Sequence record: OR525698.1
From: Escherichia phage vB-Eco-KMB43
Length of the DNA stretch: 64,000 bases
Reading direction: 5' to 3' (one strand)
Shown here piece after piece: positions 9,483 through 61,268 of this stretch. A program made the translations under genes and the position numbers. The notes under the pieces are model-generated. The model was given only the letters and a program-made list of their open reading frames with translations, did no database searches and was not told the origin of the DNA. Position 1 is the stretch's first letter; the number at the start of each line of letters is the position of its first letter.

Positions 9483-9489
9483 CTAATTT

Positions 9490-30060: not shown

Positions 30061-30319
30061 AAATCGCCCTCAGTTCTTTATAGCCTCCAATGTGCTCGTT
30101 GTCAATGAATATCTGGGGGTATACAAACCGGAGGCTCTTTGAGTTTAGCCTCCCCGCCAGTTCTTCAATCATATCACGGTCGGGAATAATGTCAACCCCG
30201 ACCTGCTTGAATACTGGTTTAAGTGTATACGGAATACCCAGATCATCCAGTAGCTTCATTGCACTAATACAACCATAACAATGATAAGCCTCTTTCGGTA
30301 TACCGTATATCTCGATCAT
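30050..30319 (-). CDS. glutaredoxin-like protein (NrdH-like)
   Basis: 89 aa; active-site-like CYGC near N-terminus and C-terminal IGGY..L motif; adjacent to anaerobic nrd genes. Confidence 0.55.
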   Translation of the reverse strand: MIEIYGIPKEAYHCYGCISAMKLLDDLGIPYTLKPVFKQVGVDIIPDRDMIEELAGRLNSKSLRFVYPQIFIDNEHIGGYKELRAIYDY

Positions 30320-30819
30320 TTCTCAGCCTTTAATCTTTCCAATTCTTCTTCCAGTTCCTTGATCCGTCGGTCACGTTCAAAGTCACGCTGCAACTTAGTG
30401 GCGAATACTCGTTTAAACTGATTGTAATCATCGATTTTAAACACTTCTTCTTCGCCATAGCGACGTACAGAAACTTCGTAGTTGTTGAAAAATTGTTCCA
30501 ACATTGCATCAGTAGTCAGTTCTGACGACACCACTTTAAAATAACGTTCTTCTGATTGCAAAAACCAGTTGTGCGCGTATTCCCGTACATCATCAACATC
30601 TCGACAGGTGTATGTTTTTCCATCAATTTCAATCGCAGAAACATATTCGATATCTGACGCAATTTTTTCAAAAGCGATAACTTTAAATGTACGGTCACCG
30701 ATAAAGTCTGCTATTGCATCATTTGCAACACTGGTTGCAAATGCTTTCCGCGCTCGATCGTTTTTCCACTGATAGGTCATACCAACAACAAACATATTAC
30801 CAACCTCGCTCTTTACCAA
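30316..30819 (-). CDS. paralog family A member (167 aa), coiled-coil C-terminus
   Basis: shares YQWKND, IEIDGKTY and FATKL motifs with ORFs at 30797-32621 and 36462-39099. Confidence 0.45.
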   Translation of the reverse strand: MVKSEVGNMFVVGMTYQWKNDRARKAFATSVANDAIADFIGDRTFKVIAFEKIASDIEYVSAIEIDGKTYTCRDVDDVREYAHNWFLQSEERYFKVVSSELTTDAMLEQFFNNYEVSVRRYGEEEVFKIDDYNQFKRVFATKLQRDFERDRRIKELEEELERLKAEK

Positions 30820-31621
30820 TCAAAAATTCAACTTCACGACGTTTAATGTCTTCTTGAAGGTCTTTAATCTTCTGGCGATCTTGCATTATTTCGTCCATCT
30901 TGTCAAGTGCTGCGATGAAATCATCGAAACGTTCAAAGGTTTTACCTTCATTTGCTTCGCCAAATTTAACCATTGTCAGGCCGTAACGACTACTAAACAG
31001 ACGTTTCAACTGTCCAACGATTTTAGAATCAGTGGTTATAACTTCCAATTCTTCTACTTCACGAAAGAATTTTCTATCAGAATCAATAAACCAGCTAGTT
31101 CCTTTATGGTCTCTATCTTCGGTTGCGCTCATTAGAGTATGGTCTTTACCATCAATTTCAATTACATCAATTTGCCCACATGGACTAACATTTTTAACAG
31201 TAAAAGGTCTATAATTTATTGCTCGTGCAATAACATAATTAAGGTTAGATACGTTTTCAGCATAATGGCAGAAGTCTGTCATAGCATTCGCATCTTTCCA
31301 AGTATAAGTTTTACCAACTTCCCATTTCTGGGGAACTTCTTCAACTTCACGAAAGAATTTTCTATCGAATGGACTAAAGAAATATGTTGCAGTCCAAATG
31401 TCTTTTCCTGTAGCAGTTTTCGCCGTATGATAAACACCGTCTAGCTCTATTGCATTAATCCAACCGTTGCCATCGATCTCGATGATGGTAAATGGCTTGT
31501 CACCAATAGATGCACTAATATCGCTGTTAAGTGGAGAAAGAACACCTTCTCCGGTAGTAATAAACTCAGTTTTAGCGTTTTCATCTTTCCAAGTGTAAGT
31601 TTTACCAATTTCCCATTTCAT
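30797..31621 (-). CDS. paralog family A member with two tandem domains (274 aa)
   Basis: two internal repeats, each KWE.GKTYTWKD ... RPFTV ... IEIDG ... RKFFREVEE. Confidence 0.5.
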   Translation of the reverse strand: MKWEIGKTYTWKDENAKTEFITTGEGVLSPLNSDISASIGDKPFTIIEIDGNGWINAIELDGVYHTAKTATGKDIWTATYFFSPFDRKFFREVEEVPQKWEVGKTYTWKDANAMTDFCHYAENVSNLNYVIARAINYRPFTVKNVSPCGQIDVIEIDGKDHTLMSATEDRDHKGTSWFIDSDRKFFREVEELEVITTDSKIVGQLKRLFSSRYGLTMVKFGEANEGKTFERFDDFIAALDKMDEIMQDRQKIKDLQEDIKRREVEFLIGKERGW

Positions 31622-31633
31622 AATATATTCCCC

Positions 31634-32134
31634 TTAACCGATTTTATCAAGTTCGTTTAATGCTTTCTCTGCTTCCTGTATAGCTTGCACCCTTTCCGGC
31701 ATTTTGTAAAGAAAATCTTTCAACTCTTCAAAACTGGAGATATGACGCAAGGCGTTAGCACCGATAGCCGCATGTGATTTGCATTCAAAGCGGATTTTAT
31801 AATTATCCATCGCCAATTTGAGAAGGTCTATTAGATCATATTCATGACCAGGTAATAAAACTTCTTTGAAGCACGCTCGGTCACCATCGGAAAACCATAT
31901 ATTATCACCAATATCGATAGAACTAATATAATCCCCTTCGTGATTATAGATTGAACGCACATTACCCCAACGGTCTACCGTAGCGACAGTAAATGGTTTA
32001 TCTAGATATGTAAACATACCATCAATATTAGGTCTTTGTTCGTAACTCCAACAATCACGCAAAATACGCTTTTCGTATTCGCCAACCAACGCATAGGTCT
32101 TACCTTCTTCCCATTTCATAATATTATCTCTCAT
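31634..32134 (-). CDS. paralog family A member (166 aa)
   Basis: MKWEEGKTY ... KPFTV ... CFKEV domain. Confidence 0.45.
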   Translation of the reverse strand: MRDNIMKWEEGKTYALVGEYEKRILRDCWSYEQRPNIDGMFTYLDKPFTVATVDRWGNVRSIYNHEGDYISSIDIGDNIWFSDGDRACFKEVLLPGHEYDLIDLLKLAMDNYKIRFECKSHAAIGANALRHISSFEELKDFLYKMPERVQAIQEAEKALNELDKIG

Positions 32135-32621
32135 TTTTGATACGTGATTCTAATTGGATCATACGGTCGCGCGTTTGCTTGTATTCACGGATAGCACCGA
32201 TCCGGCTAGGCATACCATCTAGGACGCTCTTAATCCCTTCTAGGGTAGTGATTTTAGCAATGCTATTATGTAACCCCATCTTATCGATCAACTGAATGTC
32301 GTAGGCTTCCATAAGCAGACCCAGACGTTCTAAGGTTAGATCTGGTTCTTTAACTTCTTTAAAGAATCGACGTTCACCAGCCCAAAACCACGCACCGTGC
32401 GCACCAATTGGAGTGTCTCGAACAGAAATACATTTACCATCACTTAACGAGATTTCAAGAACATGACCCTCATTACTCATAACCTCGACTGTAAAAGGAC
32501 GTCCATCAAGAAACTCAGCAACTTGACGGTTGATTGACAGTTCAGATTTGGTAAATTCTGCTTTCTTCTCATCACCATCAAGAGTGTACATCTTACCCAA
32601 TTCCCATTTCATAGCAATCAC
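32124..32621 (-). CDS. paralog family A member (165 aa)
   Basis: MKWELGKMY ... RPFTV ... RRFFKEV domain. Confidence 0.45.
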   Translation of the reverse strand: MIAMKWELGKMYTLDGDEKKAEFTKSELSINRQVAEFLDGRPFTVEVMSNEGHVLEISLSDGKCISVRDTPIGAHGAWFWAGERRFFKEVKEPDLTLERLGLLMEAYDIQLIDKMGLHNSIAKITTLEGIKSVLDGMPSRIGAIREYKQTRDRMIQLESRIKNER

Positions 32622-33310: not shown

Positions 33311-33339
33311 AGTATAGGGGATCGCGAGATCCCCGTCAA
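33311..33339 (-). promoter_or_regulatory. promoter-hairpin cassette (TTGACG, hairpin GGGGATCTCGCGATCCCC, TATACT)
   Basis: upstream of small ORF and nrdG. Confidence 0.5.
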
Positions 33340-34483: not shown

Positions 34484-34511
34484 ATTATACATTAGCTAAT
34501 CAGGTTGTCAA
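34484..34511 (-). promoter_or_regulatory. early promoter (TTGACA, 16 nt, TATAAT) directly after nrdD terminator
   Basis: consensus hexamers. Confidence 0.55.
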
Positions 34512-36986: not shown

Positions 36987-37014
36987 ATTATAGCATACTC
37001 CCTTCGCATGTCAA
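36987..37014 (-). promoter_or_regulatory. promoter-hairpin cassette (TTGACA; TATAAT in loop of GGGAGTAT/ATACTCCC stem)
   Basis: -35 overlaps stop codon of upstream gene. Confidence 0.5.
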
Positions 37015-38220: not shown

Positions 38221-38249
38221 ATCTTACTACTCCCGTTTCATCATGTCAA
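38221..38249 (-). promoter_or_regulatory. promoter-hairpin cassette (TTGACA; TAAGAT in loop of GGGAGTA/TACTCCC stem)
   Basis: same architecture as 36987-37014. Confidence 0.45.
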
Positions 38250-39130: not shown

Positions 39131-39159
39131 ATTTTACTACTCCCATTTCTTATTGTCAA
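39131..39159 (-). promoter_or_regulatory. promoter-hairpin cassette (TTGACA; TAAAAT in loop of GGGAGTA/TACTCCC stem)
   Basis: same architecture. Confidence 0.45.
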
Positions 39160-39162: not shown

Positions 39163-39636
39163 CTATCTTAATCTTTGTATGAATTGTTTCTTATACTTCT
39201 TCGTGATTTCTTCTCGTGTATCAGCGTCACAGTAATCGAAACCTTCTGCGTCCATAATATCAACCATCTCCGCGCGTGTCAAGCGTGAAAATCGTTTTAC
39301 TTTATCAACGGCATATTGAGGATGTAAATGATTGTTGGTGTAGTCTCCTTTGATGTAATTAACATAGTTTGTAGCCCAAACAACGAAATCAGCACCTAAA
39401 GCACCAACACCAAACCGTTTAAAGTCTCCGGTCAACGATCCTTCTAGGCGGTTGCAACACGAATGAAGCAATCCCCTTACTCGGCCTTGCCCTTTCCCAT
39501 CTAGATCATGATCATGGTCAAGATGGTTTTTGCTCATATCCTCAAAAAGTGGCAATTGACAAAGGGGGCAAATGCCCCCCTGTTTTTCGAATAGTTCTTG
39601 TTTGTACTCTTTAGCACTCTTAGCAGTCAGTAACAT
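39163..39636 (-). CDS. 49: recombination endonuclease VII
   Basis: N-terminus MLLTAKSAKEYKQ and CPLCQ...HLDHDHD match T4 endo VII; ATG at 39636 (track start is TTG). Confidence 0.85.
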   Translation of the reverse strand: MLLTAKSAKEYKQELFEKQGGICPLCQLPLFEDMSKNHLDHDHDLDGKGQGRVRGLLHSCCNRLEGSLTGDFKRFGVGALGADFVVWATNYVNYIKGDYTNNHLHPQYAVDKVKRFSRLTRAEMVDIMDAEGFDYCDADTREEITKKYKKQFIQRLR

Positions 39637-39943: not shown

Positions 39944-40699
39944 TTATACCTCATTCAGTTCTATATCAAGTTCATTTTCAATAATATAGGCATTAACTGC
40001 CCGTGCCGCATCATCTTCTGTGTCAAATCTTCCTATATACACACCGCGAACTTTAGCACCGTAATTACCTTGTTTTGGTACTTTGTAAACGTATCTATGA
40101 CGGGAACTTGCTGCTTTTTGGAGCTTCTTGCCATATTCAGACTTTGCATATTCTATATCATCAATCTCGTTTATACAAGACCTATCACCAAAATGTTTCA
40201 ACGCGGCAAGATTATATGCATACGCCGCGCCGATCTCGGAGGGAAAATATCCTAAATGTATCGACTTCCCATCCAACATTATTGCACCAGTCCAATAACC
40301 TTTATTCTTATTAAACGACACACCTTTATACTTCGAATATGTTTTGCATTTGGTCTTGCTCATATTCATATTATTTTGTTTGCGTGTCGTCTCTCTAAGG
40401 TTTTCAATGCGGCTATTATAACGATCTCGGTCTTTATGATCTATATACTTAGGACAATGACCATGAAACATATGATAGATAACACGGTGCATACGTTCGT
40501 ATCGCTCGCCAGTCCATACAATACGATACCCATCGGGGGTATCACTTCCAGCTAATCCGTTTATAACACCTTTTCGGTGCGGGTGAATCTTCCACCTAAG
40601 AAAACCATCATCATAATAAAACCGTGAATGATATAAATCATATAAACGTTTATCTTCTGGAGTCTTGTGTATAACCTCATATTTTAACATTGGTGACAT
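39944..40699 (-). CDS. HNH homing endonuclease with AP2-like DNA-binding domains
   Basis: HRVIYHMFHG...IDHKDRDRYNSRIENLR HNH motif; YKGVSF..GYW...AAYAYNLAALKHFG and YRGVY...AARAVNAY AP2-like modules. Confidence 0.75.
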   Translation of the reverse strand: MSPMLKYEVIHKTPEDKRLYDLYHSRFYYDDGFLRWKIHPHRKGVINGLAGSDTPDGYRIVWTGERYERMHRVIYHMFHGHCPKYIDHKDRDRYNSRIENLRETTRKQNNMNMSKTKCKTYSKYKGVSFNKNKGYWTGAIMLDGKSIHLGYFPSEIGAAYAYNLAALKHFGDRSCINEIDDIEYAKSEYGKKLQKAASSRHRYVYKVPKQGNYGAKVRGVYIGRFDTEDDAARAVNAYIIENELDIELNEV

Positions 40700-43050: not shown

Positions 43051-43084
43051 AATATAATCCTCACATCGTTCATTTGATGCGGCT

Positions 43085-43113
43085 ATTATAGATTAACCGC
43101 ATTTTCATGTCAA
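43085..43113 (-). promoter_or_regulatory. promoter-hairpin cassette (TTGACA, 17 nt, TATAAT in hairpin loop)
   Basis: stem GCGGTTA/TAGCCGC. Confidence 0.5.
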
Positions 43114-43120
43114 ACAGTTT

Positions 43121-43495
43121 TTAAAAATCTTCTTCCGGTTTATATCGACCGTCATCGACTGGTTTTGGACTGAATCCTTTATGCGTGCGCGGCTTCGCTT
43201 CCGGTTTACCAGCAATCATCAAACCAAAACATTTCAGCCCCTTATAACACATAACAATATCAACCACGGTCCACGTTATAGGCCATAAGATTGCAGCAAT
43301 ACAAAATGCTCCTGTATCGACCTCTTTGGTGTCCTTGTCGAATCTGGCGTACAAGCAGAATACTAGATACGAGATCATTGCACCAGTAGTCCAGATATAA
43401 AGCACATTAACAATATCTTGTGTTGTCACATTATCCTCCTTACATGTCTTGCAGTGCATAAAAGCATTTTTCTTCGTAGTCATAGAAAATGTCAA
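43121..43495 (-). CDS. membrane protein (124 aa)
   Basis: two or three hydrophobic helices; start uncertain because of overlap with upstream ORF. Confidence 0.35.
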   Translation of the reverse strand: MTFSMTTKKNAFMHCKTCKEDNVTTQDIVNVLYIWTTGAMISYLVFCLYARFDKDTKEVDTGAFCIAAILWPITWTVVDIVMCYKGLKCFGLMIAGKPEAKPRTHKGFSPKPVDDGRYKPEEDF

Positions 43496-43718
43496 AGTAT
43501 GCTTTTTCTACATACTCACCATTGATCCAAGCGGCAGTAACAATCAGAGTGGTCCAGTTAGATCCGCTCTCAACGGTAAAGGTTTTAATACCCAGCTTCA
43601 CAGCAAGGTCACGAGCAAACTGGTCACAACCACGGCAGGAAGTGATATTGGAAGTTTTGATTTTAAAGCCACCGCGAGTTTTAGAAATTTCTACTTTAGC
43701 GAAAGACAGGTTGCTCAT
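43440..43718 (-). CDS. hypothetical protein (about 92 aa)
   Basis: ATG at 43718 after AGGAGAATCAAA RBS; track ORF extends through the promoter. Confidence 0.4.
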   Translation of the reverse strand: MSNLSFAKVEISKTRGGFKIKTSNITSCRGCDQFARDLAVKLGIKTFTVESGSNWTTLIVTAAWINGEYVEKAYFDIFYDYEEKCFYALQDM

Positions 43719-43760
43719 TTTGATTCTCCTTAAGAAAGTGTGTTTCGTTTTGATGTGTGT

Positions 43761-43789
43761 AGTATAGGGGATCACCGATCCCCTGTCAA
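43761..43789 (-). promoter_or_regulatory. promoter-hairpin cassette (TTGACA, hairpin GGGGATCGGTGATCCCC as spacer, TATACT)
   Basis: 17 nt palindrome exactly fills the spacer. Confidence 0.5.
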
Positions 43790-43806
43790 CAACTTTTTTT
43801 ATGATT

Positions 43807-44127
43807 TTAGTGAATTAACTCTACACCAAAATGAGGCACAGAGAACGCCTTACGAAACACATATTCATCATGTTTAGGAATCGCGCCTAACCTCTCTATT
43901 TCGCTCGCTAACACGATAAACTGTTTATCTGGTGCATATGCCTTGTGTGCTTCAACAACGCACGGAAAACGCGTTTTAGAGAGTTCTGGATAGTTTTCTG
44001 AATCCAGAAGGACAATGAATACCCTGTTACATTGATTGTAGAATCCTGTTTTTGATTTCATCAAGTTTTCTTCTCTGTACAATTCGTGCAATCTTCCTTT
44101 CATGATTTCGTTGGTTCTTGTCTTCAC
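43807..44127 (-). CDS. hypothetical protein (up to 106 aa)
   Basis: ORF; 5' part overlaps the next ORF, true start probably internal. Confidence 0.3.
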   Translation of the reverse strand: MKTRTNEIMKGRLHELYREENLMKSKTGFYNQCNRVFIVLLDSENYPELSKTRFPCVVEAHKAYAPDKQFIVLASEIERLGAIPKHDEYVFRKAFSVPHFGVELIH

Positions 44128-44368
44128 AGTTTACCCACTCAACAAGATCTTTACCTAACTCGAAAGCCCATTCTCGGTCTTGCTTTACATTTTGTAGGTA
44201 TGGACTTTCCGACACTCGACGAAGTGATCTTGTCGTAACAAGAATGATCCCAGGAATGTTCGGATGTTCCTTTCCATATACAATAGGACGCGAGTCACTA
44301 TCAATACCCTGTAAGAAGGTGTATCCTGAATCACTTAGGATCATATACATTTTCATTTCATACATCAC
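44027..44368 (-). CDS. hypothetical protein (113 aa)
   Basis: ORF in accessory array. Confidence 0.35.
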   Translation of the reverse strand: MMYEMKMYMILSDSGYTFLQGIDSDSRPIVYGKEHPNIPGIILVTTRSLRRVSESPYLQNVKQDREWAFELGKDLVEWVNCEDKNQRNHERKIARIVQRRKLDEIKNRILQSM

Positions 44369-44622
44369 AGTTTCCTCAACCAGTTATTAAAGCGAGTAAA
44401 CCATGATGCTTTTCGTGCTTCTTTTACTTTATATGCACGCAAACCACTGAAACACCATTCATAATCATCACTGAAACATGATTCAACAGGAACACCCGCA
44501 TTTCGTAGTTCTCTGGTCTTTATCATGAATCCTTGACATAAGGGGCGACCTTCAACAATGATAGGAAGTTTAACTTTTTCCATGAAAGTATACCCAGCAC
44601 GGTCAATAATTTCAATCTTCAT
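44365..44622 (-). CDS. paralog family B member (85 aa)
   Basis: MKIEI...F.FM..V.LPI.VEG...AGV.V....YEWCF.G shared with 44633-44845. Confidence 0.4.
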   Translation of the reverse strand: MKIEIIDRAGYTFMEKVKLPIIVEGRPLCQGFMIKTRELRNAGVPVESCFSDDYEWCFSGLRAYKVKEARKASWFTRFNNWLRKL

Positions 44623-44632
44623 AATATAATCC

Positions 44633-44845
44633 TCAATTAGTTATAGCGCGTGCTTCGTTGCCAGTAAAGCACCATTCATACTTACGATTATGAATACCTG
44701 AAACAGATACACCAGCTTTGATCAATTCTCCAGTTGCCACAAGAAACGATCCGCCAAACTTCTTACCTTCTACAACAATTGGTAATTCAACACCTTTCAT
44801 AAAGCTAAATGCAATATCTTCTAAAGTAAAAATTTCAATTTTCAT
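44633..44845 (-). CDS. paralog family B member (70 aa)
   Basis: MKIEIFTLEDIAFSFMKGVELPIVVEG...KAGVSVSG...YEWCFTG. Confidence 0.4.
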   Translation of the reverse strand: MKIEIFTLEDIAFSFMKGVELPIVVEGKKFGGSFLVATGELIKAGVSVSGIHNRKYEWCFTGNEARAITN

Positions 44846-45089
44846 TTACATTATCTCCATAGATCTTTCCAGCAATATCAATTTCACCAGCGCGAACATC
44901 TAGGATAAGATGCGGTAGGTGAATGCAGTTTTCCCACCCTACGCGCTTCATTTCTGAAACAGTGACGTAAGCCCATCCGTTCGCTGTAATAAAGTCTACT
45001 TCAACCTTGAGAGGAAAGCAAGACTTTTCTATGTTTTCAAATCCGATAATGTGTTTTGTCGTTGAATATGGAATATATCCGGTGATCAT
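44835..45089 (-). CDS. hypothetical protein (84 aa)
   Basis: small ORF. Confidence 0.3.
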   Translation of the reverse strand: MITGYIPYSTTKHIIGFENIEKSCFPLKVEVDFITANGWAYVTVSEMKRVGWENCIHLPHLILDVRAGEIDIAGKIYGDNVNEN

Positions 45090-45547
45090 TTTGTGATCTC
45101 CTTATACTCAACACACCATAAGCGGGTAGCCCATGATAAACGCTCATAACGCTGGCAGAAATCGGACCATAGATATTGTGTACCGTCTTGCATGGTTGAA
45201 ATATGCGTTTTCTCACCTACTTTCACGAAAGAAGTATTCGATTTTGTGATCTCGACCGGAGTATATCCGAAAGCTGGTTCCAAGTCAACATCTGAACTAA
45301 ATGCTAATTTAACAGAATTTGTTTTTCTGACCGCTGTCCGGTTTCCTTCTGGGTATAGCACAGCAGGTTTAGCGCCTAAGCGGATAAACTCAGTGTTTTT
45401 AATAAACAGAATATCATGATAACCGTCATATTCCGACACTTCCATAGTAACAGGAAAATCGACAGGTTCTAAACCTGGTAGATCTCGCATATCATGAAAG
45501 GTCGCCATCAACTTTTTCATTCTATATTCCTCACTCTTCTGTTTCAT
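45086..45547 (-). CDS. hypothetical protein (153 aa)
   Basis: ORF in accessory array. Confidence 0.4.
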   Translation of the reverse strand: MKQKSEEYRMKKLMATFHDMRDLPGLEPVDFPVTMEVSEYDGYHDILFIKNTEFIRLGAKPAVLYPEGNRTAVRKTNSVKLAFSSDVDLEPAFGYTPVEITKSNTSFVKVGEKTHISTMQDGTQYLWSDFCQRYERLSWATRLWCVEYKEITK

Positions 45548-45767
45548 TTCTTTTATATGGTACTATAACAGGATTAATACAGCAAGCACCAATTACGTTA
45601 TGAGCACCACAATTTAAGCATTTATAATCATGGAACTTATTAAGGAATCGCCCGAACTCATAACCGACCAACGCCGAGTGTACTTGAGTCTCGATCTCAT
45701 CCATATCAGCCAATGTTTTAACCTTCATAATATAATCCTCAAATACTGGTTTTGCGAAGATGGTCAT
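45531..45767 (-). CDS. hypothetical Cys-rich protein (78 aa)
   Basis: CLNCGAHNVIGACC cluster. Confidence 0.3.
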   Translation of the reverse strand: MTIFAKPVFEDYIMKVKTLADMDEIETQVHSALVGYEFGRFLNKFHDYKCLNCGAHNVIGACCINPVIVPYKRNETEE

Positions 45768-46029
45768 TACATGCTTTTAATGCATCAGTCGCGGTGTCAT
45801 AGCGAGTATTATCATAGCACCAATAACCATCTGTCAACTGATAAATTAATCCATCCTTTTTAGCGTCGATGAAAGACAATTCTTTGAAAGTTTCTACTTT
45901 CTTTGCTGATACTCCACGGTCACGGCGTTTATAGAGTTTAGCTAAAACGCGTTCAGCTTGTTCCTCTTTATCGCCAGACAGATCCCAGATGACGTTTCTG
46001 ATATGCTTGATTAATTGTTCAGTGGTCAT
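45739..46029 (-). CDS. hypothetical protein (96 aa)
   Basis: ORF preceded by promoter-hairpin cassette. Confidence 0.35.
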   Translation of the reverse strand: MTTEQLIKHIRNVIWDLSGDKEEQAERVLAKLYKRRDRGVSAKKVETFKELSFIDAKKDGLIYQLTDGYWCYDNTRYDTATDALKACNDHLRKTSI

Positions 46030-46059
46030 ATTTGATTCTCCTTAGTTGGTATGGTTATC

Positions 46060-46088
46060 ATTATACGGGGATTTCTCCCCGTGTCAAC
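46060..46088 (-). promoter_or_regulatory. promoter-hairpin cassette (TTGACA, hairpin CGGGGAGAAATCCCCG, TATAAT)
   Basis: same hairpin as at 25905-25920. Confidence 0.55.
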
Positions 46089-46090
46089 AA

Positions 46091-46312
46091 TTAAATGATC
46101 TCTGCTTCACCGTTAAGGAAGAAAGACCATGTTTTGTTAGGATAGCGAAGCGCCCATGATTCAGCAGTTTTAACACCAGCTTCAAACAATTGACGGCTGG
46201 TTACTTTAGCCATACCATCTTCGATGGCAACGTTTTCAATAATCATCGGGTACTTAGCGCCACGCATGAAACCGAAGCCAGCGGAAGATTTGATAATTTT
46301 AACAGTTGCCAT
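46091..46312 (-). CDS. hypothetical protein (73 aa), distantly family B-like
   Basis: AGFGFMRGAKYPMIIEN...EAGVK pattern; GGAGAATCAAAA RBS. Confidence 0.35.
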   Translation of the reverse strand: MATVKIIKSSAGFGFMRGAKYPMIIENVAIEDGMAKVTSRQLFEAGVKTAESWALRYPNKTWSFFLNGEAEII

Positions 46313-46353
46313 TTTTGATTCTCCTAGAAAGTGTATCTCGTTTCGATGTGTGT

Positions 46354-46382
46354 ATTATGCAATAACACAGGATCGCTGTCAA
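46354..46382 (-). promoter_or_regulatory. early promoter (TTGACA, 17 nt, CATAAT) with conserved downstream block
   Basis: conserved TATAGCATAAT...CATCGAAACGA block. Confidence 0.45.
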
Positions 46383-46400
46383 CACTTTCTAAGAAAAATT

Positions 46401-46685
46401 TTAAACTAATCGAATGTAGCCCAGAATTTCAGCACCTTTAGCCAGACCTAAAACTTCCCATTCAAGGTCGCCGTAGTCATAATTTGCAACCATCAACTGA
46501 CCATTTTTCATGCAGCAATCATGAGAGAAAATTTGCCCCGCATAAACTACGATAGTAATAAACTTTCCTGATTCTGGCGGTGTGGAAGACAAAGCGACCA
46601 TATGACCATTCAGCTTAGTCACCAGTGATGGAACAATAAAATTCGGGCTTACCTGAATACCGTTAAATTCGTTTGTGTCTTTCAT
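46401..46685 (-). CDS. hypothetical protein (94 aa)
   Basis: small ORF. Confidence 0.35.
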   Translation of the reverse strand: MKDTNEFNGIQVSPNFIVPSLVTKLNGHMVALSSTPPESGKFITIVVYAGQIFSHDCCMKNGQLMVANYDYGDLEWEVLGLAKGAEILGYIRLV

Positions 46686-47032
46686 GCCATACCCCTTAAA
46701 ACACTAATAGCATAATCATGCTGGTTATTCATAATATCAATTGCATTGTGATAACGAGCTAAACCATCAAGGATAAATTCTTGTTTATCCTGTTTCAGTT
46801 TGGTATCACGCGCAGCCATAAGAGCATCAAGAACAGGTCCAAAGTGATTATCTAATTCATCTTCGGTTGCAATATTTCCTATTGCCTCGTCGATCCGTGA
46901 TTCTAATGCTTGCTTTTCGTTGATCACTTGCTGGGTATATTCCAACACATCAAGAATATCGCGGGTAACGTCGCCATGATAAGGTATTCCCGCATGAAGA
47001 TGATCAATTAATCGCTGAATATCAATGTTCAT
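46682..47032 (-). CDS. hypothetical protein (116 aa)
   Basis: ORF overlapping neighbours by 4 nt. Confidence 0.35.
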   Translation of the reverse strand: MNIDIQRLIDHLHAGIPYHGDVTRDILDVLEYTQQVINEKQALESRIDEAIGNIATEDELDNHFGPVLDALMAARDTKLKQDKQEFILDGLARYHNAIDIMNNQHDYAISVLRGMA

Positions 47033-47367
47033 TTGTAACCCTCCTCTGAAAGCACATCCCAGATCGTTGAGTCAAGGTGCATTAAATTCCACATAATAGA
47101 GTCATAACTACCGAAGCCAGAAGTAAAAATTACATCACACTGGCGATATGTCTTATGAAAATCGGTGGCTGTCTCTGCATCAATCGGCATATCGTCACCT
47201 GAAAGCACCAGACATTTAAGAATCATAACTCTGTTAGCCGTTGGCGCTTGCTTAGTCTTTTCAGCATATTTTTCGATGATCCGTTTTGCCTTTTCTTCTT
47301 TGATACGTCCAGACCAAATCCGGTTTCGGTATTGATTCATAATAATTTCAATCACATCATTTTGCAT
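47029..47367 (-). CDS. hypothetical protein (112 aa)
   Basis: ORF in accessory array. Confidence 0.35.
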   Translation of the reverse strand: MQNDVIEIIMNQYRNRIWSGRIKEEKAKRIIEKYAEKTKQAPTANRVMILKCLVLSGDDMPIDAETATDFHKTYRQCDVIFTSGFGSYDSIMWNLMHLDSTIWDVLSEEGYK

Positions 47368-47566
47368 TCTTCACGGTCTCCATAATTGTTTTGTAAGCCA
47401 GTTTAAGATGATCACCGAAAAACTTTGCGGTGTTACCCTTCGGATCGCGGAGCATGGTTTCTACGATCTCATCGGCAGTAACAATTTCTCCTTTCTTTGC
47501 TGCATGTTCTACCATATACTTCAAAGTTTCTTCGGAAGCAAGTGCTGCCGCTACTGGATTAATCAT
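47357..47566 (-). CDS. hypothetical protein (69 aa)
   Basis: ORF with AGGAGAATCAAAA RBS and promoter cassette upstream. Confidence 0.35.
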   Translation of the reverse strand: MINPVAAALASEETLKYMVEHAAKKGEIVTADEIVETMLRDPKGNTAKFFGDHLKLAYKTIMETVKNAK

Positions 47567-47596
47567 TTTTGATTCTCCTTTGTTGTCGATGTGTGC

Positions 47597-47625
47597 ATTA
47601 TGCTATACCCTATTCCGGTTGTCAA
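47597..47625 (-). promoter_or_regulatory. early promoter (TTGACA, 17 nt, CATAAT)
   Basis: directly downstream of terminator 47627-47662. Confidence 0.5.
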
Positions 47626-47626
47626 C

Positions 47627-47662
47627 ACCTAAAAACGAAAAAGCCACCCTTTCGGATGGCTT
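47627..47662 (-). terminator. rho-independent terminator
   Basis: AGCCATCC-GAAA-GGGTGGCT hairpin then TTTTTCGTTTTT. Confidence 0.6.
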
Positions 47663-47894
47663 TTGATTATATTTTATTCACGTCCATTTGTATAGTAGTG
47701 TTTGAATCGACCTTTGCTAAACTAGTTAAACATAGTAACCAATTCACCATCCCTTTCCAATGATAACCCTTCCTCGTCTTAGACGGGTCTTCCGATTCGG
47801 CAGTAATTGAACACGCGAAAGTATGAGGAAGCCAAATAGTTGTCTTAATGCTAGTATTCTTTTACTTCTGGTATGCATCCCACGGTGACTAACA

Positions 47895-50402: not shown

Positions 50403-50762
50403 TTAGTCACGGGAAGACAACCCAGCCATAAAACGGCTTAACAGTGTGTCGCGATAAGCAAAGCATAATTGCTTATCAGGGGCAGTATCACAAAGGTTGC
50501 GTTTTGTTTTAGCAAAGCTGGCAATACTCAGATCCCATGCTCGATTTTTTCGTTTTTCGTCTCGACCTTGTTTGTATGCTTCGTCGAGTTCAAGTGCGAT
50601 AAAATCACTACACATGTTATCATCATCACAGAAAGTTTTAATGATCTTTTTGTTGATCTCAAATCCTTTGTATTCGAACTTTGGATAAGGGCGCTCATTA
50701 CTAGCAAGCGCACCAGCCGAGAACATCATAGCAATCATAGCAATTATTGTCAACTTTTTCAT
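50403..50762 (-). CDS. secreted/periplasmic protein (119 aa)
   Basis: signal peptide MKKLTIIAMIAMMFSAGALA; several Cys. Confidence 0.4.
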   Translation of the reverse strand: MKKLTIIAMIAMMFSAGALASNERPYPKFEYKGFEINKKIIKTFCDDDNMCSDFIALELDEAYKQGRDEKRKNRAWDLSIASFAKTKRNLCDTAPDKQLCFAYRDTLLSRFMAGLSSRD

Positions 50763-51360: not shown

Positions 51361-51446
51361 TAATTTCTCCTGTTTGGCTTAACTTTCTGATTCCATAATA
51401 TAGCCCTATCACCAGAAAGTCAAGCATTATTTTTAACCAATTTCCA

Positions 51447-51869
51447 TTATTGGTCTACCTTCAAAACAACCGCCGACATTTTACCCGCCAGTCGTTTTGG
51501 ATTCTCTATAATCATTCGACAGCATAGACCGTGATACGGCTTGCCGTCTTCAATTAGGTCTACTGTCATCCCGATCCACATGTTACCGTCAGTAATTTCT
51601 AATCGATTAGGTCGGTCTTCCATTTTCAGGAAGTCGAAGATCTCCGGCAAACGAGTTTCTATCTTATTGAATAGTTCCATTGTCTTATGTTCATCGATAT
51701 GACGATCGGTTAGACGGTCGATCATATGCGGACTAAAGCGAATAAAAATATACTCACCATAACCATCATTCAAACACTTTTCTTTGATCTGCGCATTGGT
51801 TTTGCGCATTTCGGTTTCGAAGAATCTACGCAGCTTACTACGGCGAACATGTACGTTAATTGTTTCCAT
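51447..51869 (-). CDS. regB: RegB site-specific endoribonuclease
   Basis: RRSKLRRFFE, RLEITDGNMW, CRMII..RLAGK align with T4 RegB; ATG at 51869. Confidence 0.8.
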   Translation of the reverse strand: METINVHVRRSKLRRFFETEMRKTNAQIKEKCLNDGYGEYIFIRFSPHMIDRLTDRHIDEHKTMELFNKIETRLPEIFDFLKMEDRPNRLEITDGNMWIGMTVDLIEDGKPYHGLCCRMIIENPKRLAGKMSAVVLKVDQ

Positions 51870-52240: not shown

Positions 52241-52269
52241 ATATTACTACCCCCGATCATGTGTGTCAA
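52241..52269 (-). promoter_or_regulatory. promoter-hairpin cassette (TTGACA; TAATAT in loop of GGGGGTA/TACCCCC stem)
   Basis: same architecture as family at 60748-60776. Confidence 0.45.
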
Positions 52270-53426: not shown

Positions 53427-53469
53427 AATTAAACCCTCAGTTGATTAAGAGATTGCATCATATCATCAT

Positions 53470-53500
53470 AAAACGAAAAAGCCAACCCTTTTCGGATTGG
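53470..53500 (-). terminator. rho-independent terminator after grcA
   Basis: AGCCAATCC-GAAAA-GGGTTGGCT hairpin then TTTTTCGTTTT. Confidence 0.6.
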
Positions 53501-53512
53501 CTTGATGAAAAA

Positions 53513-54618: not shown

Positions 54619-55194
54619 TTATTTTGGATCTGGGAAATTCAATAGAGCATATTCTCCATAAAATTTCCTAGCTGCATTATCATAAGCGATTGCAGCTTCG
54701 ATTTCTGTGTCATATTGTCCAAGAACATGTCTTTGTAGGTTGACCATTATACTAGCTCTCCATTTCTTACGCAAATCCTTCCTGTTACACTTACTAACAC
54801 CCTTATACACACTAGAAAACTTTTTAGACTTCTTCTTTCTATTATGTTGATTTTGCGCGTCGGTTGCCTCCCTAAGATTTGGAGGATTGTTATTAGCAGG
54901 ATTACCGTCAATATGATCAATTAATCTAACTTGCGTCCCATGTTCTAGAAACCAAACAACCCTATGCACGAATAAATGAACTCTAGGAAGACCGTCATCT
55001 CTACTATGCCAAAATCGAAGATGACCATCTTTATTTGTTCTGACTTTAACTAAATCGCCGTGTTTATATCTACTCCCTAATGGTCGTCCTTTGATAGCTT
55101 TACTATCGACTCTATAATATAAGATACCCTCTATATGAGCATATCTAAGTTTTATCTCGTTTTGTAGGGATTCATCCCAATATTTAAAAGCCAT
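54619..55194 (-). CDS. HNH homing endonuclease with AP2-like domain
   Basis: HRVVWFLEHG...IDHIDGNPANNNPPNLREAT HNH motif; YKGVS...GQYDTEIEAAIAYDNAARKFYG AP2-like module. Confidence 0.75.
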   Translation of the reverse strand: MAFKYWDESLQNEIKLRYAHIEGILYYRVDSKAIKGRPLGSRYKHGDLVKVRTNKDGHLRFWHSRDDGLPRVHLFVHRVVWFLEHGTQVRLIDHIDGNPANNNPPNLREATDAQNQHNRKKKSKKFSSVYKGVSKCNRKDLRKKWRASIMVNLQRHVLGQYDTEIEAAIAYDNAARKFYGEYALLNFPDPK

Positions 55195-55850: not shown

Positions 55851-56117
55851 TTATTTTCCTTTTCTCTGTTTACGTTTATAAAAGTAATACATTACCTCAT
55901 CGCGTCCGGTGATCCAACATGCTAGGGCGGTAAACAGGTTTACAATTCCCAACACACCTACGGATGCGGCGCTGTCAACAGACATAGGAACAGTAAAGGC
56001 CATAGCTAACATAGCAACGCCACAAATGACATTAAGCACCATTATAATAAGACCGAAGAAAACCATTGTCAATCCTCCGACACAAGAAAACCAACAATCA
56101 CGCCAGTGATAAGACAT
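55851..56117 (-). CDS. small membrane protein (88 aa)
   Basis: two or three TM helices, basic C-terminus. Confidence 0.35.
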   Translation of the reverse strand: MSYHWRDCWFSCVGGLTMVFFGLIIMVLNVICGVAMLAMAFTVPMSVDSAASVGVLGIVNLFTALACWITGRDEVMYYFYKRKQRKGK

Positions 56118-58183: not shown

Positions 58184-58225
58184 TTTGATACTCCTTAGTA
58201 GTTCGTGTTTCGTTTCGATGGGTGT

Positions 58226-58254
58226 ATTATGCTATACACCCTCTCTCGTGTCAA
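58226..58254 (-). promoter_or_regulatory. promoter-hairpin cassette (TTGACA, 17 nt, CATAAT in loop of GGGTGTAT/ATACACCC stem)
   Basis: perfect 8 bp stem 58220-58241. Confidence 0.5.
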
Positions 58255-58262
58255 CAACTTTT

Positions 58263-58451
58263 TTAGTCTTTTTTCATAATTTCTAGAGCTGTTTCTACAG
58301 CACCTTTCCAACCCTCCCACATAATGGACATAGTAAGGAAGTTAAAGCACCCGCAGGAATCAACCTTTTTAGAGATAAACCATTCTACAAACGCTTCGCT
58401 CATACCATGCTCTTTAGCGGATTCGCGTAATTGTTCAATTTGGTCTTCCAT
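58263..58451 (-). CDS. hypothetical protein (62 aa)
   Basis: small ORF. Confidence 0.3.
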   Translation of the reverse strand: MEDQIEQLRESAKEHGMSEAFVEWFISKKVDSCGCFNFLTMSIMWEGWKGAVETALEIMKKD

Positions 58452-58473
58452 AGTATCACCTCAACACTTAACG

Positions 58474-58668
58474 TTATTCAAACTCAAACGGTCTATTCAA
58501 CCTATTGTAAAAGTACATATAACAAGCAAAATTATGCTTTGGCTGTACCGTATCAGATAGACACGCTTTTACAGCCTCGCGGTCCGATGGGTCTACACCC
58601 TCAGCTTTAAGTAATGCTAAAATCTGGTTATAGCGTACTCTTAGTTGTACTAATGGTTTATCCCCCAT
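58474..58668 (-). CDS. hypothetical protein (64 aa)
   Basis: small ORF. Confidence 0.3.
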   Translation of the reverse strand: MGDKPLVQLRVRYNQILALLKAEGVDPSDREAVKACLSDTVQPKHNFACYMYFYNRLNRPFEFE

Positions 58669-58677
58669 ATTACCCCC

Positions 58678-58905
58678 TTATAGTTGATCAGCAATGTATG
58701 CGGTGCATTTGCGGAGTTTAGCCATAGCACCACCTTTCATGTCGCTTGCGCCTACAATGTTCATGATCTCTAAGCGATCAGCCGGATTCAGTCTAGTAGC
58801 CCAGATCTGGTTAGCCAGTTCCATTTTACCCATCTGCGGTTCCATCTCAAACATTTCACGCTCAAAGTCGATAATTTCTTTTGCTGCGTCTTTAAAGTTA
58901 ATCAT
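58678..58905 (-). CDS. hypothetical protein (75 aa)
   Basis: small ORF. Confidence 0.3.
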   Translation of the reverse strand: MINFKDAAKEIIDFEREMFEMEPQMGKMELANQIWATRLNPADRLEIMNIVGASDMKGGAMAKLRKCTAYIADQL

Positions 58906-58971
58906 TTTGGTCCTCCCGTTTCGTTGATGGTTGTATTGTAGGGGAGTTATCCTCCCATGTCAACACTTTTA

Positions 58972-59157
58972 TCAGAAATATGCAATATAGTTTGCCAGTC
59001 CTACAGAGTCATCATTCGGCATTGCTTTTACCGCCAGTTCAAACCCTGCTTCAACTTTCTGTTTAGCGGATTCTTCGTTATAACCCCAGATGACCAGAAT
59101 AGCTACTACGTTTTCTTTGCTTACTGCTTTCAGTGCTTTAGTGATGCGACGTGCCAT
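58972..59157 (-). CDS. hypothetical protein (61 aa)
   Basis: small ORF with promoter cassette upstream. Confidence 0.3.
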   Translation of the reverse strand: MARRITKALKAVSKENVVAILVIWGYNEESAKQKVEAGFELAVKAMPNDDSVGLANYIAYF

Positions 59158-59203
59158 AATTTGATTCTCCGTTTAAGAAAGCGTGTTTCGTTTCGATGGG
59201 TGT

Positions 59204-59232
59204 ATTATGCTATAGGCGTGATCTGGTGTCAA
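59204..59232 (-). promoter_or_regulatory. early promoter (TTGACA, 17 nt, CATAAT)
   Basis: downstream of terminator 59254-59286. Confidence 0.5.
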
Positions 59233-59253
59233 CAACTTTTTTAAAAAAATTTT

Positions 59254-59286
59254 AGGCAATAAAAAAGCCACTCCGAAGAGTGGCTT
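59254..59286 (-). terminator. rho-independent terminator closing the ORF-free stretch 59287-59434
   Basis: GCCACTC-TTCG-GAGTGGC hairpin then TTTTTTATT. Confidence 0.6.
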
Positions 59287-59434
59287 ATAGGGAAGGTAGC
59301 GAATCTTCCTTGTCTCCAACCTGCTAGCGGCCTAGCAAGTGAATGCTTTAGCGTACCGGATCACCCCATACGCTGTAATAAATGCGGCTAGGTGACGTCC
59401 AAATCATTCTAACCGCGCTGTCTTTAGTTCACTA

Positions 59435-59653
59435 TTATTTATATCGCTTTCTCTCGCGACGTTTTTGATCTTCTTCCTTGATAGAGTTAAACGCATCAAA
59501 AAGACACATGACACTGATAATGAACATAACCGTATTTTCTACGATATCCCACGGCTTCGCATCAGTACAGATCCCCCAAACGGTAAGAAATGCAAATAGT
59601 GCAGAAGAGATCACAAGCATGATACTTGCTAAGATATAAAAAGTCATTTTCAT
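59435..59653 (-). CDS. small membrane protein (72 aa)
   Basis: two TM helices, basic C-terminus. Confidence 0.3.
   Translation of the reverse strand: MKMTFYILASIMLVISSALFAFLTVWGICTDAKPWDIVENTVMFIISVMCLFDAFNSIKEEDQKRRERKRYK
59436..59443 (-). promoter_or_regulatory. T4-type late promoter motif TATAAATA facing an ORF-free stretch
   Basis: overlaps stop codon of ORF 59435-59653. Confidence 0.35.
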
Positions 59654-59844
59654 GGTTTTACCTCAATTCTTCGATATTCATCACACATCCACGCAGTAAG
59701 CAAGAATCCCAGCACATAAGCAACAAAATACGTTAATGCTTCTTCTGGTTCGGTGCTATGCGCCATCATCAGACCAGCGAGAAAGGTCTTAACAATTACA
59801 TTTAAAATAATTAGCCACGCAAATAATTTCATCGTTTGCCCCAT
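59650..59844 (-). CDS. small membrane protein (64 aa)
   Basis: two TM helices. Confidence 0.3.
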   Translation of the reverse strand: MGQTMKLFAWLIILNVIVKTFLAGLMMAHSTEPEEALTYFVAYVLGFLLTAWMCDEYRRIEVKP

Positions 59845-60068
59845 TTCGGTCGAGTCTTTTCAAACTTATACATCCCGTAACAATCTCGAATCATCCACGT
59901 AACAAGAGCACCAGTCAACACAGACAATACACAGAAGAAGTAAAACGGTCCGGTTGCATTATCAACATGAGCAAGCCAGGTAAAGAAAACACATGCTAAG
60001 AATGTGAAGAACATCATAAAACACAAGAAAGCAAAATATTTTATGCTACTCATAGCGCCACCATACAA
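59829..60068 (-). CDS. small membrane protein (79 aa)
   Basis: two TM helices. Confidence 0.3.
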   Translation of the reverse strand: MYGGAMSSIKYFAFLCFMMFFTFLACVFFTWLAHVDNATGPFYFFCVLSVLTGALVTWMIRDCYGMYKFEKTRPKWGKR

Positions 60069-60156
60069 CAGATCATAAGAAAACCCAACGCAATAAGAAT
60101 TGCATCAAATTTAGTGAACTCCGGTCCACATATCAACATCATTCGTTCCTGTTCAT

Positions 60157-60399
60157 TCATAGATCACAGAGCCATCTTAAAGCACCACATAAAGCGAGCA
60201 GAATACTAGGTATAAACGAGATCAAAACAAGTTTGCAAAAATCATCTAAGGTAATACCGGAATAGATACCAACTGTAACAACACCGATCATCAGACACAG
60301 AAAGAAAACAAATGCAATCAGAAACAAAGTATTGCTAAACAGTTTAGTGATCATTAGACACCCCACGACGATCAATTTCAAAAACTTTTTTATCATCAA
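60157..60399 (-). CDS. small membrane protein (80 aa)
   Basis: two or three TM helices. Confidence 0.3.
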   Translation of the reverse strand: MMIKKFLKLIVVGCLMITKLFSNTLFLIAFVFFLCLMIGVVTVGIYSGITLDDFCKLVLISFIPSILLALCGALRWLCDL

Positions 60400-60547
60400 C
60401 GAAGCATGTCACAACTGCCTCGTTGACTTCCGCAAATTGTTGTGTTACCCACTTAAGGTCAGAGCGAAACAATGTTCTATTAATAACAAATGTTTTACCT
60501 TTCTTATCCATACCCATAAATTTTGCTTTAACCATATCCAATTCCAT
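60344..60547 (-). CDS. hypothetical protein (67 aa)
   Basis: small ORF. Confidence 0.3.
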   Translation of the reverse strand: MELDMVKAKFMGMDKKGKTFVINRTLFRSDLKWVTQQFAEVNEAVVTCFVDDKKVFEIDRRGVSNDH

Positions 60548-60553
60548 ATTATC

Positions 60554-60715
60554 ACCTTATTTGCTAATCGCTAAACCCAATCCGAAGAGAGCACCCGATG
60601 CTACAGTATACCCGAAAGTTTCAAAGGCAGTAAAGATATCTAAGCCGCCAGCTAACAGAGTTGCAGTAAACAGAGTACCAGCTACGAACATAAAAGTTTT
60701 ACCGATAAATTTCAT
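60554..60715 (-). CDS. small membrane protein (53 aa, below ORF-track cutoff)
   Basis: hand-translated MKFIGKTFMFVAGTLFTATLLAGGLDIF...; AGGAGAATCAAA RBS. Confidence 0.3.
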
Positions 60716-60747
60716 TTTGATTCTCCTTTCGTTTGTTTGTGGGGGGT

Positions 60748-60776
60748 ATCTTACTACCCCCGTTTCATGTTGTCAA
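60748..60776 (-). promoter_or_regulatory. promoter-hairpin cassette (TTGACA; TAAGAT in loop of GGGGGTA/TACCCCC stem)
   Basis: same architecture. Confidence 0.45.
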
Positions 60777-60782
60777 CTGTTT

Positions 60783-61157: not shown

Positions 61158-61195
61158 TTTTGATTCTCCTAAGTGTGTTTCGTTTCGATATGTGC

Positions 61196-61224
61196 ATTAT
61201 GCTATAGTCGTTTATGGTTGTCAA
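61196..61224 (-). promoter_or_regulatory. early promoter (TTGACA, 17 nt, CATAAT)
   Basis: downstream of terminator 61228-61262. Confidence 0.5.
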
Positions 61225-61227
61225 CAC

Positions 61228-61262
61228 CTAAAAACAAAAAACCCCGAAAAATTTTTCGGGGT
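61228..61262 (-). terminator. rho-independent terminator after 57B-like gene
   Basis: perfect palindrome CCCCGAAAAATTTTTCGGGG then TTTTTTGTTTTT. Confidence 0.6.
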
Positions 61263-61268
61263 ATAGAA

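Follow-up and report, generated by a model that had tools for sequence, protein, structure and literature searches.

In the first 64 kb of the genome of Escherichia phage vB-Eco-KMB43 (OR525698.1; all 64,000 nucleotides (nt) are called the window here), 25 intergenic near-consensus sigma-70 promoters are found on the minus strand, which we identify, with a probability of about 0.9, as promoter-early stem-loops (PeSLs), the early-promoter cassettes of RB49-like T4-type phages. PeSLs are already known, and the present analysis is a correct rediscovery and not the description of a new element. The phage is an RB49-like T4-type coliphage (Krischvirus), and the window is colinear with RB49 from base 1, within the rIIA gene. 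Megablast searches with positions 43085-47662 and 40000-64000 matched 58-63 phage records, all of them Krischvirus, at 94-97% identity and none identical; the high-identity relatives include RB49, Phi1, JSE and GEC-3S. The minus strand carries almost all genes of the window, and the elements are therefore read on this strand. A preliminary description of this DNA had counted at least 19 intergenic sites; combining a relaxed promoter score with gene positions across the whole window raised this number to 25. The seven sites that had been named as examples each possess, on the minus strand, a TTGACA (or TTGACG) hexamer, a spacer of 16-17 nt, a TATAAT-like -10 hexamer, a leader, a ribosome-binding site (RBS) and an ATG.

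The promoter part of these elements is far more frequent than expected by chance. There are 32 copies of the pattern TTGACA-N16-18-TANNNT on the coding strand and none on the opposite strand, while dinucleotide shuffles contain 1.67 copies on average and 7 at most. Within the catalogue, the -35 hexamer is exactly TTGACA at 21 of the 25 sites, the spacer measures 17 nt in 20 sites and 16 nt in five, and the -10 hexamer never deviates from the consensus by more than two mismatches. The distance from the -10 to the start codon is 25-59 nt at all 25 sites, and the promoters are oriented toward the downstream gene, as expected from the sigma-70 component of a PeSL. The 20 nt upstream of the -35 are enriched in A+T (72.6% versus a background of 59.8%, p = 8e-7), with A alone accounting for 40% versus 31%. 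Seventeen of the 25 sites lie between 33 and 62 kb in a region rich in ORFans. An independent consensus scanner placed the same sites at the top of its ranking (42.5-62.4 kb), and an unbiased repeat finder that was blind to promoters recovered the elements as the largest dispersed repeat family, D1, with nine copies of 62 nt, and as the sub-families D2, D4, D6, D7 and D9.

Leaders and RBSs are shared among the sites to differing degrees. The leader CATCGAAACGAAACAC, with up to three mismatches allowed, is found seven times in the window versus 0.57 times in dinucleotide shuffles; it had been described as often conserved, which holds for its start CATC(G)AAA, common to about a dozen PeSLs, whereas the full leader is present at only five. 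The RBS GGAGAATCAA occurs 11 times in the window versus 0.14 times in the shuffles, and this type precedes 11 of 24 first genes versus 2 of 105 other genes (Fisher p = 6e-8). It is thus strongly associated with PeSLs but not almost invariant, as had been assumed; three of the first genes have GAGGATTATATTATG instead, and the remainder other sequences.

The identification itself rests on the comparison with published elements. Arbiol, Comeau, Kutateladze, Adamia and Krisch (2010, Genome Biol Evol 2:140; PMC2839356) described 51-52 PeSLs per genome in RB49 and Phi1, and defined them by an upstream region rich in A and T, a sigma-70 consensus and a stem-loop of polyG/polyC that can take any of five positions. 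PeSLs end in a Shine-Dalgarno sequence and a start codon, cluster in hyperplastic regions and flank gene 43 (PMC2839356); definition and experiments are also found in PMC4122927, and the concept was extended to PST/T4 and nt-1/KVP40 (Comeau et al. 2014). Every one of these sequence-level properties is found at the sites of the window, including the flanking of gene 43, which lies between the PeSLs 19081 and 16353 (PeSLs are designated here by the lowest coordinate of their promoter core). For 24 of the 25 sites, an orthologous core is present at the equivalent position in RB49 and/or Phi1, the exception being 46060, a replaced variant, and the depositors of GEC-3S annotated promoters at 13 of 13 orthologous positions (38-62 kb, hyperplastic region). 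In the RB49 record, the counterparts of the gene 43 and gene 45 sites are labeled "hypothetical early promoter". There is no categorical difference from the PeSLs of RB49 and Phi1; what sets the window apart is another PeSL variant at the position of ORF078 and the absence of the adjacent gp38 cassette. No Rfam covariance model matched at its gathering score on either strand of the whole window, and in a scan of viral contigs the invariant 41-nt core of PeSL 51395 found no match, while the skeleton TTGACA-N28-32-CATCGAAA produced at least 120 single chance matches in unrelated contigs and was uninformative.

Whether such sites initiate transcription and what their hairpins do has been addressed in the literature for other PeSLs of RB49 and Phi1. 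Whole PeSLs drive lacZ, and so strongly that most clones gain mutations in the -35 or -10, and one PeSL stem-loop lowers downstream lacZ as much as the rrnB T1 terminator (PMC2839356). Mini-circles with chimeric PeSLs were detected in RB49 and Phi1 by inverse polymerase chain reaction (PMC2839356). The early-promoter consensus of RB49 agrees with 5'-end mapping by Desplats et al. 2002, as cited by Nolan et al. 2006 (PMC1524935).

Apart from the intergenic sites, several perfect TTGACA-N17-TANNNT matches also occur inside coding sequences, for example at 2190-2218, 50725-50753, 56044-56072, 39254-39282 and 22930-22958 (minus strand). They are confined to the coding strand, with none on the opposite one, and lack hairpins. 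Some of them may be internal early promoters; within genes 41 and 46, a few sites of this kind are annotated in the RB49 record.

The region 43085-47662 contains five of the elements, all on the minus strand. PeSL 47597 (47567-47664, core 47597-47625) belongs to the upstream-terminator class. Its terminator stem-loop at 47639-47664 is followed by a T-run, the -35 TTGACA (47620-47625), the -10 CATAAT (47597-47602), the leader CACATCGACAACAA, the RBS GGAGAATCAAAA and the ATG at 47566, from which a four-gene unit starts (47357-47566 down to 46401-46685). A stretch of 86 nt folds with -23 kcal/mol (z = -2.8), and the element is orthologous in eight relatives. PeSL 46354 (46313-46400, core 46354-46382) has its -35 at 46377-46382 and its -10, CATAAT, at 46354-46359, followed by the leader CATCGAAACGAGATACAC, again the RBS GGAGAATCAAAA and the ATG at 46312. 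Its hairpin around the -10 is weak and AT-rich (z = +0.15); in relatives, a compensatory change from T-A to G-C is found in the 5-bp stem that encloses the -10. The open reading frame (ORF) 46091-46312 behind it is the sole single-gene unit of this region. PeSL 46060 (46030-46090, core 46060-46087) represents the spacer-hairpin class: between the -35 (46082-46087) and the -10 TATAAT (46060-46065), the hairpin CGGGGAGAAATCCCCG (46066-46081, z = -2.9) fills the 16-nt spacer, and the leader ATACCAACTAA, the RBS GGAGAATCAAAT and the ATG at 46029 lead into a unit of seven genes. The same class includes PeSL 43761 (43719-43800, core 43761-43789), in which an A-rich upstream tract precedes the -35 (43784-43789), and the hairpin GGGGATCGGTGATCCCC (43767-43783) fills the 17-nt spacer before the -10 TATACT (43761-43766). 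Here, the leader CATCAAAACGAAACAC, the RBS GGAGAATCAAAATG and the ATG at 43718 head two genes, and relatives keep the stem while the loop varies (GGT, ACGT or ACC). In PeSL 43085 (43051-43120, core 43085-43113), finally, the -35 at 43108-43113 is followed by a 9-bp hairpin at 43077-43102 (z = -3.3), which encloses the -10 TATAAT (43085-43090) in its loop and 3' arm. The RBS is of the second type, GAGGATTATATTATG, the ATG is at 43050 and the unit comprises nine genes; among relatives, two pairs of the stem alternate between U-A and U·G. The unit sizes in this region are therefore 4, 1, 7, 2 and 9 genes.

Folding of the elements confirmed that the hairpins are a genuine property of the family. 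Fourteen of the 25 promoter cores (-35 to about +10) are at or below the 5th stability percentile of a background of 1729 windows of 45 nt (binomial p = 1.6e-12), and shuffle-based z-scores range from -1.9 to -3.8 for seven of the eight sites tested. Ten hairpins enclose or overlap the -10, five are located in the spacer, five upstream (four with a T-run) and 1-3 downstream; at 2-4 sites the hairpin is absent or weak, in particular at 8885, which has none, and at 46354. A hairpin with T-run directly precedes the promoter at 61196, 59204, 47597 and 34484, and a weak one at 51395, so that the earlier statement that many sites follow a terminator applies to only 4-5 of the 25. The canonical criterion for an intrinsic terminator, a GC-rich hairpin with a U-tract directly behind it on the transcribed strand, selects only these four upstream-class sites (61196, 59204, 47597 and 34484) together with 3174 and 21107. 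For the 15 hairpins of the spacer and -10 classes, the 9 nt that follow the stem contain only 0-4 U, and a terminator scanner made no sense-strand call; these 15 of the 25 sites are therefore not predicted to terminate transcription by the canonical intrinsic mechanism.

The comparison of orthologous sites in ten relatives provides an independent view on these hairpins. It was used in place of a fixed-column covariation analysis across the paralogous -10-enclosing hairpins, which was dropped because their registers differ. The promoter hexamers are nearly invariant (varying columns 0/150 for the -35 and 1/150 for the -10), and the stems vary in 2.6% of columns, compared to 16.9% in the loops and 15.1% in the non-stem spacer (stems versus loops plus spacer, Fisher p = 3e-10). 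It follows from the low variation of the stems that the pairing is conserved, beyond the promoter sequence. The nature of the remaining changes is informative as well. All seven one-sided stem changes toggle between a Watson-Crick pair and a G·U pair of the sense strand (at 47597, 43085 (twice), 39131, 34484, 21107 and 2804), and a sense-strand A·C state was observed in none (binomial p = 0.008). A sense-strand A·C state corresponds to a wobble pair on the other strand. This skew of 7:0 favors a role in the sense-strand RNA, and the constraint on the stems thus points to a function of the sense transcript rather than to a cruciform or another double-stranded DNA site.

The proposal that the GC-rich hairpins act in DNA, as cruciforms, as sites for recombination or replication proteins or as substrates of endonuclease VII, appears improbable to us for this reason, since a DNA-level role would be strand-symmetric. 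It can draw on the fact that most stems are perfect palindromes, on the endonuclease VII (gene 49) that the phage encodes and on the speculation of Arbiol et al. that GGGG...CCCC is the target of a specific DNA-binding protein (PMC2839356). The summed fold energies of sense and antisense strands are also equal overall (-242 versus -237 kcal/mol), which agrees with a DNA-level function but is uninformative on a function in RNA. However, hairpin sequences and registers vary from site to site, which argues against a single sequence-specific protein site, and Dam sites (GATC) are not enriched in the promoter cores (8 observed versus 5.0 expected, p = 0.13).

A PeSL is best explained as a module of five parts: an A/T-rich upstream tract, a sigma-70 promoter, a GC-rich stem-loop, a leader and a strong RBS. 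The near-consensus promoter would be used by the unmodified host RNA polymerase straight after infection and would start an early transcription unit of 1 to 18 genes, with a short, A/C-rich and unstructured 5' leader that would begin at the A of CATC. The stem-loop either lies within the promoter, where it fills the spacer or surrounds the -10, or is found downstream or, in the form of a true terminator, upstream. As the hairpins are located upstream of the start site, only read-through transcripts of the preceding unit contain them, and this presence in read-through RNA only fits the published idea of an attenuator or insulator. The hairpin would accordingly attenuate, terminate or end-stabilize the read-through RNA of the preceding unit, and neighboring units would be insulated from each other. 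Taken together with the RegB sites discussed below, this leads to the tentative and perhaps one-in-several-options view, which we put forward with more reservation than conviction, that a PeSL is a self-limiting module, in which the hairpin without U-tract acts in the sense-strand read-through RNA and the near-invariant GGAGAAUCAAA is a RegB/S1 site.

Several observations weigh against parts of this explanation of the PeSLs. The lack of U-tracts and of scanner calls at the 15 sites has been mentioned, and the sole stem-loop that was tested experimentally is that of PeSL211/210, which is located outside the window. The hairpins without U-tract suggest a non-canonical terminator or a 3'-end barrier. 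The latter possibility deserves separate consideration: these hairpins might not be terminators at all, and instead stabilize 3' ends or form processing barriers against 3' exonucleases after read-through or cleavage. The scarcity of U after the stems and the absence of terminator calls are in line with this, as is the constraint on the sense-strand RNA, and phage and host RNases, RegB included, do act on such early transcripts (PMC3014915, PMC1702504). On the other hand, the tested PeSL stem-loop reduced downstream lacZ like rrnB T1, although that reporter cannot separate termination from destabilization. On balance, we consider a pure barrier function the less likely but a serious alternative.

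The second component of the self-limiting module is the proposed RegB/S1 site. RegB together with ribosomal protein S1 cleaves the 11-nt single-stranded sequence GGAGRAYARAA, with GGAGAAUAAAA as the form in T4 (Durand et al. 2006, PMC1702504), and in RB49 the RegB cleavage takes place at GGAG/U with an A-rich tract behind it (PMC1702504). The commonest RBS of the PeSLs, GGAGAAUCAAA, agrees with the RegB/S1 consensus at 10 of 11 positions; the contrasting leader type is GAGGAUUAUAUUAUG. While the strict GGAGRAYARAA has no match in the window, the form GGAGRAYNRAA, in which position 8, the mismatch of the PeSLs, is left free, is found ten times on the coding strand and not on the opposite one. 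The PeSL leaders are predicted to be unpaired, and a regB gene homologous to RB49p094 is present at 51447-51869. The PeSL RBS resembles known RegB/S1 targets in its unstructured A-rich leader, in its position at the Shine-Dalgarno sequence of early genes and in the presence of regB in the same phage, and GGAGAAUCAAA may double as a RegB/S1 target. By cleavage there, the phage RegB could switch off the early messages. It speaks against this assignment that position 8 of the consensus is missed (C instead of the strongly preferred A) and that the RegB of the RB49 type is divergent. RegB has no mention in the text of the PeSL paper (PMC2839356), and neither the link to RegB shut-off nor that to an RNA hairpin without U-tract has been drawn in the PeSL papers examined.

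Two further translation-related features were observed. The motif GAGGATTATATTATG is a second rigid initiation motif, with 12 copies at one mismatch or less versus none in shuffles and none on the opposite strand. Its start codons on the minus strand are for instance 43050, 44622, 45728, 38189, 36956, 14982 and 2109, and it is mostly found on operon-internal genes (14 of 17 looser matches). It contains no GGAG, and it may mark RegB-resistant genes or represent a RegA-type operator. At PeSL 9454 (9421-9489, minus strand), upstream of modB (8917-9420), the leader forms a hairpin GCCTCC...GGAGGC with T6 directly before the ATG. This hairpin has the appearance of an intrinsic terminator and at the same time sequesters GGAGG, the Shine-Dalgarno sequence of modB; it may serve in attenuation or in translational control.

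It had also been suggested that PeSLs delimit single-gene modules and that small ORFs are shuffled between them as self-contained cassettes. The first suggestion agrees only in part with the gene organization, as only 6-7 of the 25 units between successive PeSLs consist of one gene, with a median of 2-3 and a maximum of 18. For the second, the window was compared to ten relatives, including RB49, Phi1, JSE, FL20, JK32, G2248, Brandy, Makalu_003 and GEC-3S, by chaining megablast blocks, which revealed 21 distinct differences in structure with a size of 100 bp or more. Six of them have a breakpoint inside a PeSL footprint versus 1.6 expected from random placement (p = 0.003; the footprints make up 4.0% of the window), but as PeSLs account for a large share of the intergenic DNA, this enrichment is inseparable from a general intergenic preference. 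Moreover, two of the six are insertions of homing endonucleases, and about ten of the 21 are of endonuclease or intron type, as judged from Pfam and from the endonucleases and split genes that are annotated in relatives; at PeSL 3174, for example, Pfam identifies the insertion in JSE as an HNH-AP2 homing endonuclease. Most differences in gene content of the window are homing-endonuclease events and not PeSL events.

Four of the 21 events are bounded by PeSLs and unrelated to endonucleases. ORF004 (2579-2773) is present in the window and absent in JSE, with the junctions exactly between the leader CCCCATCGAAA and the RBS AGGAGAATCAAAATG. A mosaic boundary relative to RB49 and Phi1 starts 28 nt upstream of PeSL 33311. 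A 2.1-kb gene (JK32, G2248 and Brandy) or ORF084.1 (Phi1) is inserted directly next to the terminator of PeSL 47597, on its upstream side. The gp38 locus (46053-46091 in the window; RB49 locus L002 6772-7681) measures about 910 bp in seven relatives and 37 bp in the window: the long cassette consists of a terminator, gp38, a second terminator and a terminator-class promoter core, and the short version is a spacer-hairpin promoter core. Homology resumes at ATACCAACTAAGGAGAATCAA, and the junction lies between the -10 and the leader. The window phage shares the gp38-less arrangement with FL20 and G2248, and tblastn found no gp38 homolog within the 64-kb window. The 777-bp receptor-binding adhesin gene gp38 stands between two terminators in RB49, Phi1, JSE, JK32, Brandy, GEC-3S and Makalu_003.

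The swap junctions fall in PeSL sub-parts, namely the leader, the RBS, the -35 edge or the terminator edge, and the non-orthologous PeSLs 46060 and 25898 have the identical hairpin CGGGGAGAAATCCCCGT. The notion of cassette shuffling is thus upheld in so far as four PeSL-bounded swaps exist; it fails in that none of the four is a self-contained unit of PeSL and ORF flanked by two PeSLs, and the published model of single ORFans between two PeSLs is not represented among the events in the window. Because the PeSLs are the largest dispersed repeat family, we think that their sub-parts would occasionally allow crossovers at short homology, by which adjacent genes are gained, lost or replaced. It has to be considered against this that an exact homology of at least 20 nt exists in only 4 of 300 PeSL pairs, with a maximum of 33 nt.

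This scarcity of homology also speaks for a simpler explanation, namely that PeSLs are only strong early promoters with regulatory hairpins, that their likeness reflects functional constraint and vertical descent, and that they have no special role in shuffling, because indels merely land in intergenic DNA, which is mostly PeSL. Nearly all of the 25 PeSLs indeed occupy the same positions in relatives, most units are multi-gene, and the PeSL-bounded events without endonuclease are few. We nevertheless judge this explanation to be rather unlikely, as junctions are located exactly in conserved sub-parts of PeSLs (between CATCGAAA and AGGAGAATCAAAATG for the ORF004 indel, at ATACCAACTAAGGAGAATCAA for the gp38 replacement), as the same hairpin recurs in two non-orthologous sites and as experiments have detected chimeric PeSLs in mini-circles (PMC2839356). 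Crossovers take place at PeSLs only occasionally, and gene content changes more often through homing endonucleases.

With regard to the endonucleases, three free-standing HNH genes are present on the minus strand of the window, at 39944-40699 and 54619-55194 (both HNH_3+AP2) and at 11059-11622 (HNH_3+NUMOD4), none of which RB49 or Phi1 has at the respective position. In relatives, other endonucleases are found at positions corresponding to 26953, 53439, 35538, 63756, 3201 and 9482 of the window. The segments 26953-27043 and 53427-53512 (minus strand) possess a strong terminator and a TTTTTCGTTTT tail and/or a CATCGAAAACGA-like leader without a -35 hexamer; both segments (repeat family D6) resemble what is left of a PeSL or a relative of PeSLs that lacks the promoter, and they coincide with sites of homing-endonuclease genes in relatives.

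Other modular systems share some of these properties. The morons of lambdoid phages (Hendrix et al. 2000) are likewise accessory genes with their own promoter and terminator that are inserted between resident genes. They differ in that they are usually single genes, often in opposite orientation, that they presumably arise by illegitimate recombination and that their regulatory sequences form no conserved repeat family, whereas PeSLs are co-oriented, belong to one repeat family and mostly head multi-gene units. The original PeSL authors drew an analogy to integron cassettes and their attC sites, which also combine a repeated imperfect palindrome with small promoterless ORFs and a circular intermediate. 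Unlike in integrons, no integrase is known for PeSLs, no attC-type structure is conserved and each PeSL brings a promoter; the exchange presumably proceeds by the general recombination machinery of the phage on short homology.

The other PeSLs of the window are also all on the minus strand. A cluster of five occupies the distal hyperplastic region (58184-61268), with cores at 61196-61224 (terminator 61241-61262), 60748-60776, 59204-59232 (terminator 59265-59286), 58935-58963 and 58226-58254; the sites 59204 and 58226 are 89% identical over 62 nt and share the 33-nt exact run. PeSL 52241-52269, with a hairpin that encloses the -10, is located upstream of the ORF that precedes regB, and PeSL 51395-51423 (TTGACT/TATTAT) upstream of vs.1; the core of the latter is invariant in seven relatives. 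The PeSLs 39131-39159, 38221-38249 and 36987-37014 have GGGAGTA...TACTCCC hairpins that enclose the -10 and constitute the repeat family D4 in this region, followed by PeSL 34484-34511 with its upstream terminator and PeSL 33311-33339 with the spacer hairpin GGGGATCTCGCGATCCCC. The half of the window with the replication genes contains the sites 25898-25926, 21107-21135, 19081-19109, 16353-16380, 9454-9482, 8885-8913, 3174-3201 and 2804-2832. Between these two groups, at 30300-32620 (minus strand), tandem paralogous ORFs of about 160 amino acids are spaced by about 490-530 nt (repeat families D10-D12); RB49, Phi1 and JSE have divergent alleles instead at 31833-32593.

PeSLs are a textbook-style case of how the accessory-gene regions of large lytic phages are organized and remodeled, and recognizing them yields the early transcription map of a genome almost for free. 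The practical value of the present analysis is in its corrections: endonucleases dominate the differences in gene content, and PeSL units are mostly multi-gene. The match to RegB sites, the constraint on the stems in the sense strand, the predominance of endonucleases and the gp38 polymorphism at a PeSL are modest new points that leave the classification unchanged. The presence or absence of the gp38 adhesin at a PeSL is relevant to host range in a phage group that is used for therapy. If the self-limiting module exists as proposed, genes behind a PeSL would gain strong early expression, insulation from their upstream neighbors and a timed shut-off, and RegB cleavage at PeSL leaders would be the main switch from early to later expression in a lineage without MotA-dependent middle transcription.

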